Shown: positions 52,390-55,289 of the stretch, piece after piece
Numbering within the stretch: the first letter of the stretch is position 1
Layout of the letters: each line of letters starts with the position of its first letter
Origin: a virus
Lineage: Duplodnaviria; Heunggongvirae; Uroviricota; Caudoviricetes
DNA length: 64,000 bases
IMG/VR virus record: IMGVR_UViG_2690316311_000019
Reading direction: 5' to 3' (one strand)
Translations under genes and position numbers: made by a program
Notes under the pieces: model-generated
What the model was told of the DNA's origin: nothing
The model's database searches: none
What the model saw: only the letters and a program-made list of their open reading frames with translations

Positions 52390-52593
52390 ATGACAATCGT
52401 AAAAACCCATACCGGCACCGTGATCACCAAAGACGGGCCGCAGGTAAAAAAACTGCACCAAACAGAGCGGATGTGGGTCGTCGGCAAAAATGAGTTTTAC
52501 CACAAAGATACCGGACGCCGCCACTTTGCAGAAAATACGCGCCGTCGACTGCTGTTAGACACCATCAAGCCTATCGAGGTGAAGCATGTTTAA
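52390..52593 (+). CDS. Hypothetical small protein
   Basis: 67-aa ORF. Confidence 0.35.
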   Translation: MTIVKTHTGTVITKDGPQVKKLHQTERMWVVGKNEFYHKDTGRRHFAENTRRRLLLDTIKPIEVKHV

Positions 52594-52825
52594 ACAGAAC
52601 GAAAAAGCTATCGCTCAAATTGCTGATTATATCCCGCGTGCGTGCCGGGGTATGCAGTTGCAGGAAGCCAAAGCGCGCCTGGAGAAAAAAATTGCGCTCT
52701 ATATTGATGACGGCTGTGATGCTGCCGTTCTTAACGCGGCGTTCGCACCAGCTCTTAACAGTCATACTCGGGAGTCTTTTTTTTCGTGCATCGAAGCGCA
52801 ACTCCGCAAAGGAGGCAGCCAGTGA
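52586..52825 (+). CDS. Hypothetical small protein
   Basis: 79-aa ORF ending KGGSQ with embedded RBS for the next gene. Confidence 0.4.
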   Translation: MFKQNEKAIAQIADYIPRACRGMQLQEAKARLEKKIALYIDDGCDAAVLNAAFAPALNSHTRESFFSCIEAQLRKGGSQ

Positions 52826-53523
52826 GCGAAATTAATTACCGGGCACTGCGTGAGATAGCAAAACAGGCAACACAGGGCGAATGGGTCGCATTTATTTCGC
52901 CGGGTACTGGTACGTATGCGGTGCACACGCCCGGTGATGAACGATGTGAAGACGTTATCAAATGGACCGGCTTTGATGGACAGAAAAATGCAGAGAACAA
53001 CGCTCGTCATGTTGCCGCGTTCAACCCAAAGGTTGCACTGGAGCTGCTTGGTGAAATTAAGTGCTTGGAGGACACAAATATTGATGCCACGTGCCGAATT
53101 TCAGAGCTTGAGACTAATCTCGCGGCGCTGGTGGCAGAGAACGCCGGGCTGAAACACGCAATGGCCGTAACTCTTGAGCATGTGTCGGTCACGGATGCAG
53201 GGCAGGCTGGTGTTGCTGCAATGATTATCAACGATGCCCTACACCACAGCGAAACTCCAGCTACCGATGCTTTTCTGGCTGAAATTCGTGCGGAAGCACG
53301 CAACGAGGGGATTAACTATACCGCCAGCCGTCTTGCTGCTGCGTTCAATCACGGATTTATCAATAAGTCTTTGCGTGAAGTTTTCGACGTTACACGCATG
53401 ATTTTGTCAGCGAAAGAAGAGTTGGCTAATGAACCGTACCCGATTGATGGCCTGTCTGGTGAATATGCGGAGAAATCCCTTGAAGAATGGGCGGAACAGA
53501 TTAGCAAAGGAGGCAACCAGTGA
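52822..53523 (+). CDS. Ead/Ea22-like hypothetical protein (paralog 1)
   Basis: GTG start in GTGA overlap; N-terminus SEINYRALREIAKQATQG paralogous to 54002..54772. Confidence 0.5.
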   Translation: MSEINYRALREIAKQATQGEWVAFISPGTGTYAVHTPGDERCEDVIKWTGFDGQKNAENNARHVAAFNPKVALELLGEIKCLEDTNIDATCRISELETNLAALVAENAGLKHAMAVTLEHVSVTDAGQAGVAAMIINDALHHSETPATDAFLAEIRAEARNEGINYTASRLAAAFNHGFINKSLREVFDVTRMILSAKEELANEPYPIDGLSGEYAEKSLEEWAEQISKGGNQ

Positions 53524-54005
53524 CTTTACATGCAGCAATCCTCGACATGTGCTGTGGCAGTCGCATGTTCTGGTTCGATAAGAAGGACGACCGGGCGATA
53601 TTTAGCGATATCAGAAAGGAAGAGCACACATTGTGTGATGGACGACGGCTGATAATTAGCCCTGACCTGATAGCAGATTTTCGTGCATTACCATTTGCAG
53701 ACGCATCGTTTCCGATTGTTGTATTCGACCCTCCGCATCTTGAGCGTGTTGGTGATAACGCCTGGATGGGAAAGAAATATGGACGGCTGAATAAAGATAC
53801 CTGGCGTGATGATTTGCGGCAGGGATTTAAAGAAGCCTTTCGTGTGTTGTGGCCATACGGCGTTCTGATTTTTAAATGGAATGAAACGCAAATACCTGTT
53901 CGCCAAATATTGGCACTGACCGACAGAAAGCCTGTTATCGGTCAACGAACAGGAAAGGGTGACAAGACCCACTGGATTATTTTTATGAAGGAGGGCAACC
54001 AGTGA
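53520..54005 (+). CDS. Small SAM-dependent methyltransferase-like protein (possible DNA N6-adenine/N4-cytosine MTase)
   Basis: Motif I-like ILDMCCGS and motif IV-like VVFDPPH in a 161-aa protein; GTG start after AAGGAGG. Confidence 0.5.
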   Translation: MTLHAAILDMCCGSRMFWFDKKDDRAIFSDIRKEEHTLCDGRRLIISPDLIADFRALPFADASFPIVVFDPPHLERVGDNAWMGKKYGRLNKDTWRDDLRQGFKEAFRVLWPYGVLIFKWNETQIPVRQILALTDRKPVIGQRTGKGDKTHWIIFMKEGNQ

Positions 54006-54772
54006 GCGAGATTGACTATCAGGCGCTGCGTGAAGCAGCAGAGAAAGCAACTAAAGGATGCTACATCGTAGGGCATACATCGGGCAATCAGCATGAGAAT
54101 ATAACAGGAGTTTTTGTTTGTCAAAAATGGAAAGGAGAACCCGGTGGCGTAATTGCAGAATGTCATGTTAACTGCCTGGTTGAAACAGATGCTCAGGCTT
54201 ACGCAAACGCTGAATTTATTGCTGCCTTTAATCCAAATGTTGCGCTGGTGCTTCTGGATGAACGGGAAAGAAACCAGCAATACATCAAACGCCGCGACCA
54301 GGAGAACGAGGAGATTGCGCTTACGGTTGGGAAGCTGCGTGTTGAGCTTGAAGCAGCAGAGAACAACCTTATTGATAGTGAATGCCATGTTGCTGAACTG
54401 GAAGAAGCTCTACGCGATAAGCAGGCGTTACTTGAAGCCTCAGAAAAGCGCAACGCAAAATTACAAAGCGAGAATGCATACATCCGCAACCGGTACAAAG
54501 AACTGGACCTATTAATCGGGAAAAACATTCTGGTCATGCAGGCTGCCATTATCGAATGGCAGGCAACTGGCGACGCTAAGAGCGGACTAGCATGGATTTA
54601 TAACACACTGTTTGGCCCTGGCGAATTACCGGACGAATCTGAGAAAGATGCTCAGGCCTACTTTAATCGCAAATATGCACCGATTGACGAAAAGCTTATG
54701 GCGCTTCACAAGTGGTTTTGGGAACAAAGTGAAGCCGAGCGCGCCGCTGGCATTCGCATCAAAGGAGAGTGA
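54002..54772 (+). CDS. Ead/Ea22-like hypothetical protein (paralog 2) with coiled-coil
   Basis: N-terminus SEIDYQALREAAEKATKG; GTG start in GTGA overlap. Confidence 0.5.
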   Translation: MSEIDYQALREAAEKATKGCYIVGHTSGNQHENITGVFVCQKWKGEPGGVIAECHVNCLVETDAQAYANAEFIAAFNPNVALVLLDERERNQQYIKRRDQENEEIALTVGKLRVELEAAENNLIDSECHVAELEEALRDKQALLEASEKRNAKLQSENAYIRNRYKELDLLIGKNILVMQAAIIEWQATGDAKSGLAWIYNTLFGPGELPDESEKDAQAYFNRKYAPIDEKLMALHKWFWEQSEAERAAGIRIKGE

Positions 54773-54773
54773 G

Positions 54774-55289
54774 ATGGCGTTAACACACCGAGAACTCTGT
54801 CAGATTGCGTACAAGTTCCTTAAGCGCAACGGGTTCAAGGTTTGCTTTCATGACCGCTTTATAGCTGTAACCAGTACCGGAGAACAGCCAGATGCTATGG
54901 GATTCAGAAATTCAGCATCATGCCTGATAGAGGCGAAGTGTTCTCGTGCTGACTTGTTGGCAGATAAAAAAAAGCGTTTCCGTAAAAATCCGTCTCTTGG
55001 AATGGGCGACTGGCGATTCTTTATTAGTGAGCCGGGAATTATTTCAATTGAGGATTTACCACCTGGCTGGGGATTACTTCACGTTGTTAACGGAAGAGTA
55101 CGGAAAGTACATGGGTGGCCCAAGGGTAATTGCTGTTGGGGTAACCCTGAAGATAAACCTTTTATTGGGAATAAGCAGGTTGAATGCGATTACATGTTAT
55201 CTGCATTAAGGCGCATGGAGTTGAGAGGGCACCTTAATGAAATATATGACGGTGTAATTGTTAATAAGAAAGAAGGAAACGCGGCATGA
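54774..55289 (+). CDS. PD-(D/E)XK nuclease-like protein
   Basis: GEQPDAMGF ... LIEAKCS (D...ExK) pattern; ATG at 54774 after AAAGGAG. Confidence 0.45.
   Translation: MALTHRELCQIAYKFLKRNGFKVCFHDRFIAVTSTGEQPDAMGFRNSASCLIEAKCSRADLLADKKKRFRKNPSLGMGDWRFFISEPGIISIEDLPPGWGLLHVVNGRVRKVHGWPKGNCCWGNPEDKPFIGNKQVECDYMLSALRRMELRGHLNEIYDGVIVNKKEGNAA

Follow-up and report, generated by a model that had tools for sequence, protein, structure and literature searches.

A 64,000-nucleotide stretch of viral DNA (the window) carries three consecutive gene junctions with nearly the same short sequence, and the question is whether this repeat reflects the signals of translation only or marks a site at which whole genes are joined and exchanged. 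The original prediction placed there a small methyltransferase gene between two paralogous genes, inserted as a cassette by recombination at the repeated junction, and suggested that it could form a modification module with the nuclease-like gene that follows. Comparison of the locus with viral, plasmid and chromosomal sequences points to an accessory operon that is probably composed of small gene cassettes with a few types of conserved, reusable linker between them, an arrangement that would enable their exchange.

The accessory operon and its genes

The source element is a P1-like phage-plasmid of Escherichia coli. The 3.1 kb queried (52300–55400) was 100% identical to p2010C_5028-1, a plasmid of 98.7 kb whose annotation includes c1, icd/ant and phd/doc, with terminase near the locus. 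According to this annotation, the element combines P1-type immunity, addiction and packaging genes on a plasmid within the range of ~95–100 kb. O111 plasmids of the p2010C_5028-1 type have been termed P1-like (PMC6602927). The region from 52.4 to 56.1 kb of the window is a tightly packed, co-directional accessory operon with Ead/Ea22-like genes (Table 1), and operons of this type are common in lambdoid prophages. Within the operon, promoter and terminator sites were no more numerous than in shuffled sequences. The sole match in an Rfam scan of 49.0–58.5 kb was a sub-threshold GcvB, on the opposite strand and outside the locus.

Table 1. Features of the accessory operon in the window; protein tails are given up to their last residue.
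Feature	Position	Strand	Characteristics
orf79, small protein, phrog_1344	52586..52825	+	Includes linker A copy 1 in its tail, AQLRKGGSQ
Linker A copy 1, AAGGAGGCAGCCAGTGA	52809..52825	+	Shine-Dalgarno, 6-nt spacer, GTGA start/stop overlap; orf79/ead1 junction
ead1, Ead/Ea22-like, 233 aa, GTG start, tail EEWAEQISKGGNQ	52822..53523	+	PF13935, phrog_368; PGAP name ead/Ea22-like
Linker A copy 2, AAGGAGGCAACCAGTGA	53507..53523	+	Left edge of the methyltransferase cassette and of the sister-plasmid variable segment
Class I SAM-dependent methyltransferase, 161 aa, GTG start, mobile cassette	53520..54005	+	phrog_954, PADLOC, family profile
Linker A copy 3, AGGAGGGCAACCAGTGA, one extra G	53989..54005	+	Right edge of the methyltransferase cassette
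ead2, Ead/Ea22-like, 256 aa, GTG start, coiled coil, tail GIRIKGE	54002..54772	+	PF13935
Linker B, AAAGGAGAGTGAGATGGC, KGE tail and MA start	54761..54778	+	Second conserved junction type; right edge of the sister-plasmid variable segment
orf171, PD-(D/E)XK-fold protein, 171 aa, intact ORF	54774..55289	+	Resembles SPO1766 (PDB 3dnx)
DUF551-domain protein, 285 aa	55286..56143	+	Pfam PF04448 (2.7e-10); next gene of the same coupled operon, ATGA overlap with orf171

The two genes that flank the methyltransferase are paralogous, as had been predicted. Both pass the Pfam family PF13935 (Ead_Ea22; cut-off 27), ead1 with 2.5e-27 (96.6 bits) and ead2 with 2.9e-38 (132 bits), the likeness being limited to the N-terminal ~140 aa (30% identity), while the C-terminal domains are unrelated. 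In this match and in their layout they resemble the Ead/Ea22-like proteins lambda Ea22 and P22 Ead, for which a short N-terminal domain, a coiled coil and a variable C-terminal domain have been described (PMC10834534). They are unlike these proteins in that their C-terminal domains differ from each other, that of ead2 matching the PADLOC model DpdH (1.6e-36). A literature search for "DpdH" returned only unrelated uses of the string.

The 161-aa protein shows motif I (LDMCCGS) and an invariant DPPH. It matched phrog_954 (2e-87, profile positions 51–204 of 229) and the PADLOC models MTase_II (8.5e-74) and oMTase (4.4e-50). By itself, the protein of the window stayed under the Pfam cut-off (17.7 vs 21.2 bits); among 42 diverse relatives, 34 matched Methyltransf_11 (best 3.7e-10) and 11 weakly matched N6_N4_Mtase. 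The family profile matched PH0226 (1ve3) at 2.3e-5, with the motifs aligned. Residues D70-P71-P72-H73 are invariant across the 42 relatives and conform to (D/N/S)PP(Y/F/W/H), the catalytic motif that characterizes the N6-adenine/N4-cytosine amino-methyltransferases. A class I SAM-binding Rossmann core is thus indicated at family level, which upholds the assignment originally made for this gene against the possibility, raised together with it, that a SAM-binding fold is lacking.

Searches of this protein with phmmer against PDB sequences gave nothing significant, the NCBIfam search gave no match, and no mention of the RefSeq accessions of the locus proteins was found in papers. A single-sequence AlphaFold model was discarded (pLDDT 57.9), as were the GNAT-type Foldseek matches of that model, which are meaningless (E >0.06). 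M.EcoGIX was also weighed as what might presumably be the identity of the protein. In a study of plasmid replication-associated, single-strand-specific methyltransferases, M.EcoGIX is described as a plasmid-borne (pESBL) enzyme.

On the basis of its sequence, the protein is probably an orphan amino-methyltransferase acting on DNA, for which an anti-restriction (self-protection) role is plausible. It is similar to the orphan phage DNA methyltransferases (oMTase, MTase_II, PHROG 954) in its HMM matches, its class I SAM fold at family level and its DPPH motif, and differs from them in its length of 161 aa, too short to accommodate a separate target-recognition domain, of which none is recognisable, and in lacking the ~50-residue N-terminal part of the PHROG 954 profile. 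Of 5426 complete E. coli genomes, 945 (~17%) contain the gene, at 1004 chromosomal and 7 plasmid places.

The closest structural match of orf171 was SPO1766 (PDB 3dnx), a small uncharacterised protein which we take to belong to the MmcB/DUF1052 family. The restriction-endonuclease-like alpha/beta core is present in orf171, and residues D40, E53 and K55, invariant in 46 sequences, align with D..ECK of 3dnx, in agreement with the PD-(D/E)XK assignment of the original prediction. With respect to SPO1766 and the small Hjc-like PD-(D/E)XK proteins, orf171 has extra C-terminal helices. It showed no significant Pfam family, nothing significant with phmmer against PDB sequences and no PADLOC match, and is likely a stand-alone protein with a predicted PD-(D/E)XK nuclease fold.

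Linkers A and B

The sequence AAGGAGG(G)CA(A/G)CCAGTGA is common to the three consecutive junctions, all on the plus strand, which read AAAGGAGGCAGCCAGTGA (J1), AAAGGAGGCAACCAGTGA (J2) and GAAGGAGGGCAACCAGTGA (J3). The three shared junctions were correctly recognized in the original prediction; its exact consensus was not, J3 having one extra G. The upstream proteins end in KGGSQ, KGGNQ and KEGNQ, as expected from the K-G/E-G-N/S-Q tails described there, and the next gene begins each time at the GTG of GTGA. When three mismatches at most were allowed, the 17-mer AAGGAGGCAACCAGTGA was found at exactly 3 sites in the window against 0.13 expected from shuffles, and 3 copies were reached in 0 of 100 shuffles, a result that bears out the repetition of the junction itself.

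The constraint imposed by ribosome binding was tested with a pattern consisting of [AG]GAGG, a spacer of 4–8 nt and, where two open frames of 50 codons or longer overlap, an [AG]TGA. The window as a whole showed this pattern at no more than 5 sites, and the two situated outside the linker junctions have the spacers CTAAGCA and CGAA. Since these two coupled junctions carry unrelated spacers, ribosome binding alone does not account for the shared spacer, and the reservation that the similarity might derive solely from this constraint does not hold.

The consensus of linker A is GCnGCnCAGCTTCGCAAAGGAGGCAACCA followed directly by GTGA, and it continues ~15 nt farther upstream of the 18-mer. Within it, the upstream gene comes to its end (AQLRKGGNQ), a strong Shine-Dalgarno sequence is followed by a spacer of constant length (6 nt), and the TGA stop overlaps with the GTG start of the next gene; in 16 viral loci, the tail of the orf79 family reads AAQIRKGGNQ. 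Linker B, with the consensus AAAGGAGAGTGA[G/T]ATGGC, is of the same design. The conservation acts at DNA level, since the linker is kept even where the upstream gene reads another frame: a DUF1627 protein (locus L083) ends in QEATSEQD, and the methyltransferase of three loci (L012–L014) ends 4 nt later. Folding of the four junctions gave no consistent structure (z-scores -0.44, +2.09, -2.07 and -0.15). A reading of the junctions as RNA elements was dropped on account of this result and of the Rfam scan.

Reuse, breakpoints and the empty site

The exact 18-mer of linker A was detected at 124 or more sites in at least 120 viral contigs. The proteins encoded downstream of it belong to at least 12 clusters (Ead 85, methyltransferase 4 and ten others), and those upstream to at least 5. 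Linker B was found at at least 126 sites, with at least 17 downstream and at least 6 upstream clusters. Both are short conserved boundary sequences that join different gene families, and the junction is a widespread and already conceptualised type of boundary sequence and not a local peculiarity, a point absent from the original prediction. Linkers on both sides were observed for 52 cassettes, most of them Ead variants; as the 5′ and 3′ ends of Ead-family genes are themselves linkers, the pattern read here as exchange could partly reflect descent.

Ten methyltransferase loci were compared in pairs with differing upstream genes. Identity was ~0.13–0.41 upstream of position -33, 0.55–0.94 between -33 and 0, and at least 0.95 inside the methyltransferase gene, and the mosaic breakpoints therefore coincide with the linker, the step from random to ≥95% identity being completed within 33 nt. 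Upstream of the methyltransferase cassette, 6 or more different partners occur, each connected to it by the same linker sequence, and no linker-free heterogeneous junction was seen at the methyltransferase insertions of the E. coli clade (L002–L014).

The sister P1-like plasmid pSF26_102-2 shares 97.6% identity in the 1130 nt that precede linker A copy 2 and 97.5% in orf171, which lies beyond linker B. Between these two linkers identity is random, and eight other genes occupy the place of the methyltransferase and ead2. The empty site was recovered with a synthetic query formed by the 3′ end of ead1 and the 5′ end of ead2, to which, among 25 E. coli records listed, 12 gave a single continuous match of 400 nt at 93–94% identity. 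In two loci (L287 and L288), the tail EEWAEQIRKGG(N/S)Q is followed by GTG AGC AAG ATT GAC via a single linker copy. The presence or absence of the cassette is thus precise, the empty site holding one linker copy, an ead1-type 3′ end and an ead2-type 5′ end. The breakpoints within 33 nt, the sister-plasmid swap starting at the ead1 junction and the exact empty site sustain the original proposal of recombination at the repeated junction, either by insertion of the cassette in the window or by its deletion elsewhere.

Explanations and comparison with known systems

From their anatomy, the linkers probably couple the translation of each gene to that of the preceding one. They would also provide ~18–33 bp of shared DNA for recombination between co-resident prophages and phage-plasmids, so that homologous or relaxed-homology recombination at the linkers could add, remove or replace entire genes in frame and leave the operon intact. 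The 482-bp methyltransferase cassette between two copies of linker A would represent a unit of insertion or deletion of this kind. Its most likely source is a chromosomal lambdoid prophage, since nearly all copies of the gene sit in prophages of this kind. The candidate agents are host RecA or phage annealases of the Red/RecT/Erf type, an enzymology that we infer. RecA-dependent recombination in E. coli requires at least ~25 bp to be efficient, and the linker core, of 17–18 bp, is shorter. Lambda Red recombines diverged sequences (PMC2327257).

A purely translational origin, by which each junction separately evolved an optimal Shine-Dalgarno sequence, spacing and GTGA overlap and plays no role in exchange, is unlikely. 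Functional constraint acts on the sequence AAGGAGG and on the 4-nt overlap, no conserved RNA structure was found round the junctions, and more distant methyltransferase homologues show a similar design (Shine-Dalgarno in the tail plus ATGA) with a different sequence, so that part of the resemblance is ancestral design and not exchange. However, conservation extends to the spacer CA(A/G)CCA and to ~15 nt upstream, the remaining coupled junctions of the window are different, the linker persists where another frame is read, identity rises from random to ≥95% exactly at the linker, and an exact empty site exists; the identical linker haplotypes between otherwise unrelated flanks that speak against convergence have already largely been seen. 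Most mosaic boundaries of phages are generally explained by illegitimate recombination followed by selection (PMC3029335), a model in which joins are random and only those in frame at gene boundaries survive. Applied to this locus, it would make the shared sequence a side effect of a tandem duplication of an Ead gene and then one chance insertion of the methyltransferase, and the paralogy of the flanking genes and the linkers natively carried by Ead genes agree with it. This course of events is nevertheless improbable too, given that, in hundreds of contigs, unrelated families are found at either side of the same linker, that all of the various upstream partners of the methyltransferase cassette are joined via the same sequence and that the empty site is exact to the base.

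The methyltransferase and orf171 could also be regarded as a compact restriction-modification or anti-restriction module, the former shielding DNA from the latter or both countering host defences, as their position 770 bp apart in one operon and the PADLOC label MTase_II would suggest. Against this stands the presence of an orf171 homologue within ~4 kb in only 3 of 80 methyltransferase loci, a co-occurrence on which a restriction-modification pairing was rejected, the adjacent and co-inherited genes of a type II system not being found. Moreover, orf171 is present without the methyltransferase in pSF26_102-2 (L082), ead2 separates both genes, orf171 is without a PADLOC match and has as its top structural match a small uncharacterised protein and no restriction enzyme, and the methyltransferase also fits the orphan model oMTase and is without a target-recognition domain. 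The "mini modification module" of the original prediction accordingly finds no support as a functional pairing, and a module in either form is extremely unlikely; the methyltransferase, the two Ea22-like coiled-coil proteins and orf171 are likely independent passengers and not one machine. Very unlikely, finally, is that the linkers are dedicated sites of an unrecognised cassette-shuffling system of Ead/Ea22 arrays, with an integron-like logic and driven by a phage annealase or an Ead-associated factor. If true, temperate phages and phage-plasmids would have a means of exchanging, at high frequency, genes for anti-defence or pro-lysogeny functions.

The exchange of cassettes at reusable linkers can be compared with two known systems. 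Like integron gene-cassette arrays, the operon consists of promoterless genes in the same orientation, with short conserved bounding sites and presence/absence polymorphism. Unlike them, its linkers measure 18–33 bp, lie inside coding sequence and form no consistent hairpin, and exchange presumably takes place by general recombination. No integrase was detected among the 46 annotated features in 27 kb around the locus, and the locus does not show the tyrosine-recombinase integrase and structured attC sites of an integron array.

Short conserved boundary sequences have already been proposed for mosaic junctions (Susskind & Botstein 1978; Clark et al. 2001, on HK620). As these works are presented in PMC3029335, the sequences of lambdoid phages flank interchangeable modules of the early or accessory operon, as the linkers do, and were proposed as homologous recombination sites. 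The breakpoints, the empty site and the reuse by multiple families observed here all fit that proposal. The present case is distinguished by its location in a P1-like phage-plasmid, by two defined linker types counted across hundreds of contigs, and by a linker that doubles as C-terminal tail, Shine-Dalgarno sequence and GTG/TGA overlap. To our knowledge, most phage mosaic junctions are without shared sequence, and for this reason clean examples of the boundary-sequence model are few. The locus offers two linkers, an exact empty site, sister plasmids differing only between linkers and hundreds of reuse events, with which the question of short conserved linkers versus random illegitimate joins as the driver of module exchange becomes testable in E. 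coli. It also illustrates the traffic of accessory genes from lambdoid prophages to P1-like phage-plasmids and draws attention to two abundant uncharacterised passengers, a minimal DPPH methyltransferase and a small PD-(D/E)XK protein. The locus is not a new kind of system; it is a clean, well-documented instance of the boundary-sequence model of lambdoid mosaicism.

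Operon layout and host element

The locus comprises seven consecutive genes on the + strand (52390-56143), whose joints are overlaps of 4 or 8 nt or a 1-nt gap; features are listed in the table. The 98.7-kb plasmid p2010C_5028-1 was 100% identical to window 52300-55400 and, because it carries phd/doc, c1, icd/ant and terminase near the locus, it is a P1-like phage-plasmid; plasmids of this type from O111 strains have been termed P1-like (PMC6602927). Among 5,426 complete E. coli genomes, 3,075 contained pieces of the region, chiefly in chromosomal prophages; such pieces also occurred in Stx-converting phages.

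Features of the locus (window positions)
Feature	Position	Strand	Product or sequence
orf67	52390-52593	+	67 aa
orf79	52586-52825	+	79 aa
Linker A, copy 1	52809-52825
ead1	52822-53523	+	233 aa
Linker A, copy 2	53507-53523
Methyltransferase	53520-54005	+	161 aa
Linker A, copy 3	53989-54005
ead2	54002-54772	+	256 aa
Linker B	54761-54778		AAAGGAGAGTGAKATGGC; ..KGE* tail, MA.. start; also at many compared loci (L204-L286)
orf171	54774-55289	+	171 aa
DUF551 protein	55286-56143	+	285 aa

At window 51586-52306, a single phrog_874 gene is broken into ORFs of 101 and 154 aa by a 2-nt deletion near 51860, the reference being the intact 242-aa gene of the sister plasmid pSF26_102-2 (locus L082, 1779-2507). 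A mosaic patch (51669-51830) also differs, and PGAP called the gene a frameshifted pseudogene in the identical p2010C_5028-1. The place of the DUF551 gene is occupied by two genes (212 aa and a 195-aa DUF551 protein) in the otherwise identical p2010C_5028-1 and by one 189-aa gene in pSF26_102-2; mosaic exchange therefore extends downstream of the methyltransferase, ead2 and orf171.

The repeated junction, breakpoints and empty site

The 17-mer AAGGAGGCAACCAGTGA (linker A) occurred at three sites in 64 kb at up to three mismatches, with 0.13 expected from shuffles, and these are exactly the three junctions named in the original prediction. Copy 3 has one additional G, so that the methyltransferase tail stays in frame. 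Folding gave no consistent RNA structure around the junctions, which matched no Rfam family. Only five sites in the entire window had a start/stop overlap joining two sizeable open frames together with a Shine-Dalgarno (SD) sequence and a spacer of 4-8 nt. The two outside linker A have unrelated spacers, which argues against ribosome-binding constraint as the sole source of the likeness. Part of it is nevertheless inherited design, since an SD-in-tail and ATGA arrangement of different sequence is already present in distant homologues of the methyltransferase.

Within the set of 80 viral contigs carrying methyltransferase homologues, the E. coli-type genes were preceded by at least six unrelated sequences, all merging approximately 25-33 nt ahead of the GTG onto ..GCCGCCCAGCTTCGCAAAGGAGGCAACCAGTGA. 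For pairs of loci with different upstream genes, identity was 0.13-0.41 beyond -33, 0.55-0.94 in -33..0 and ≥0.95 within the gene (10 loci). On the 3' side, one of several Ead variants lay beyond the linker after the methyltransferase in some loci, and a 103-aa membrane protein or a decayed remnant in others. Plasmid pSF26_102-2, also P1-like, was 97.6% identical to the window as far as the ead1 junction and 97.5% identical again from the orf171 ATG; between them identity was random, and DUF4752 plus seven more annotated genes replace methyltransferase-ead2. The right limit of this swap is linker B, AAAGGAGAGTGA(G/T)ATGGC.

A synthetic empty-site query, in which the final 200 nt of ead1 run directly into the initial 200 nt of ead2, gave a single unbroken 400-nt match at 93-94% identity in 12 of 25 E. 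coli records among the matches listed. O157:H7 PV15-279 and plasmid pMB9272_3 read ..EEWAEQIRKGG(N/S)Q* and then GTG-AGC-AAG-ATT-GAC.. through one linker copy; the window therefore corresponds to this empty site with a 482-bp methyltransferase cassette and one further linker copy added. Linkers bound cassettes and coincide with breakpoints, and cassette presence and absence differ with single-base precision. The pattern would fit insertion in the window or deletion elsewhere alike and does not tell direction. The methyltransferase gene occupies 1004 chromosomal versus 7 plasmid places, which favours a prophage as the source from which the plasmid acquired it.

The repeat originally noticed is real, and its reading as a site of cassette recombination is well supported by these comparative data, namely the breakpoints at the linker, the sister-plasmid swap and the exact empty site. 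As a caveat on exchange, linkers are the native ends of Ead genes, and of the 52 cassettes with linkers at both ends, 14 were copies of the methyltransferase, one encoded a 118-aa protein and the rest were all Ead variants.

Proteins of the locus

The methyltransferase matched phrog_954 "DNA methyltransferase" (2e-87) and, in PADLOC, MTase_II (8.5e-74) and orphan methyltransferase (4.4e-50). A profile of 42 diverse relatives matched the SAM methyltransferase PH0226 (2.3e-5) with motifs aligned; Pfam Methyltransf_11 was matched by 34 of the 42 and N6_N4_Mtase weakly by 11, and the DPPH motif is invariant in the family. The single-sequence structure model was too poor for use, and the SAM-binding fold of the 161-aa protein is supported at the level of the family. 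This E. coli form consists of the catalytic core alone and has no recognition domain. Many relatives (P0129, P0136, P0241 and others) are about 248 aa long with a C-terminal extension of roughly 90 residues, and others have about 50-70 additional N-terminal residues.

The mini modification module proposed earlier was not borne out: the methyltransferase and the PD-(D/E)XK-like orf171 are not a pair, since an orf171 homologue was found in only 3 of 80 methyltransferase loci and pSF26_102-2 has orf171 without the methyltransferase. An intact 171-aa orf171 was present in four of four loci (the window; L001, 14475-14990; L082, 6458-6973; L083, 6106-6621). RefSeq labels its 5' third a "frameshifted" pseudogene, with the remainder unannotated or a separate gene; this label probably arose as an artefact of annotation. 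Within orf171 there is a run of eight A (A8) at about 54965-54972.

Both ead1 (2.5e-27) and ead2 (2.9e-38) passed Pfam Ead_Ea22. Residues 145-243 of ead2 (window 54434-54730, C-terminal domain) matched the PADLOC model named DpdH (1.6e-36), which belongs to the Dpd 7-deazaguanine defence system; a small domain common to both proteins, a decoy or wrong labelling of the model could lie behind the match. The genes flanking the methyltransferase, first described as paralogous, are so over the N-terminal ~140 residues (30% identity) and not beyond, in agreement with the published Ea22 layout of N-terminal domain, coiled coil and variable C-terminal domain (PMC10834534).

Linker reuse and boundary sequences

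The exact 18-mer AAAGGAGGCARCCAGTGA, whose consensus runs on upstream as gc.Gc.caGcttCGC, was found at no fewer than 124 sites in at least 120 viral contigs, joining at least 12 downstream and 5 upstream protein clusters. Linker B had at least 126 sites in viral contigs; the proteins downstream of it fell into at least 17 clusters and those upstream into at least 6, and orf171 was its commonest downstream partner (at least 40 sites among the matches listed). The linker is conserved as DNA rather than as peptide. At L083 the upstream DUF1627 gene passes through it in a different frame, and at L012-L014 a 1-nt difference shifts the methyltransferase stop 4 nt later.

In viral contigs L023-L027, L030-L038 and L040, the methyltransferase stops early at TAG and is followed by a decayed remnant, GGCATCCAGTGAGTAGG, and then non-coding DNA with a terminator-like hairpin; the remnant resembles a fossil of the linker where the operon ends. 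In some Salmonella prophages, proteins of 240-245 aa (P0088, P0089, P0100) have an Ead_Ea22 N-terminal region fused to the orf171 PD-(D/E)XK domain, which suggests that domain fusions can arise by loss of the linker stop.

Translation would be coupled by the linker, through a strong SD six bases ahead of a GTG overlapping the upstream TGA, and prophages and phage-plasmids that share a cell may exchange cassettes through homologous recombination of the general or relaxed kind. Diverged sequences are recombined by lambda Red (PMC2327257). The phenomenon is of a known kind, the conserved boundary sequences of mosaic temperate-phage operons, and the proposed exchange corresponds to the boundary-sequence idea of Susskind and Botstein and of Clark et al. 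2001, as summarized in PMC3029335; the locus is an unusually clean and quantifiable case of it, inside a P1-like phage-plasmid.
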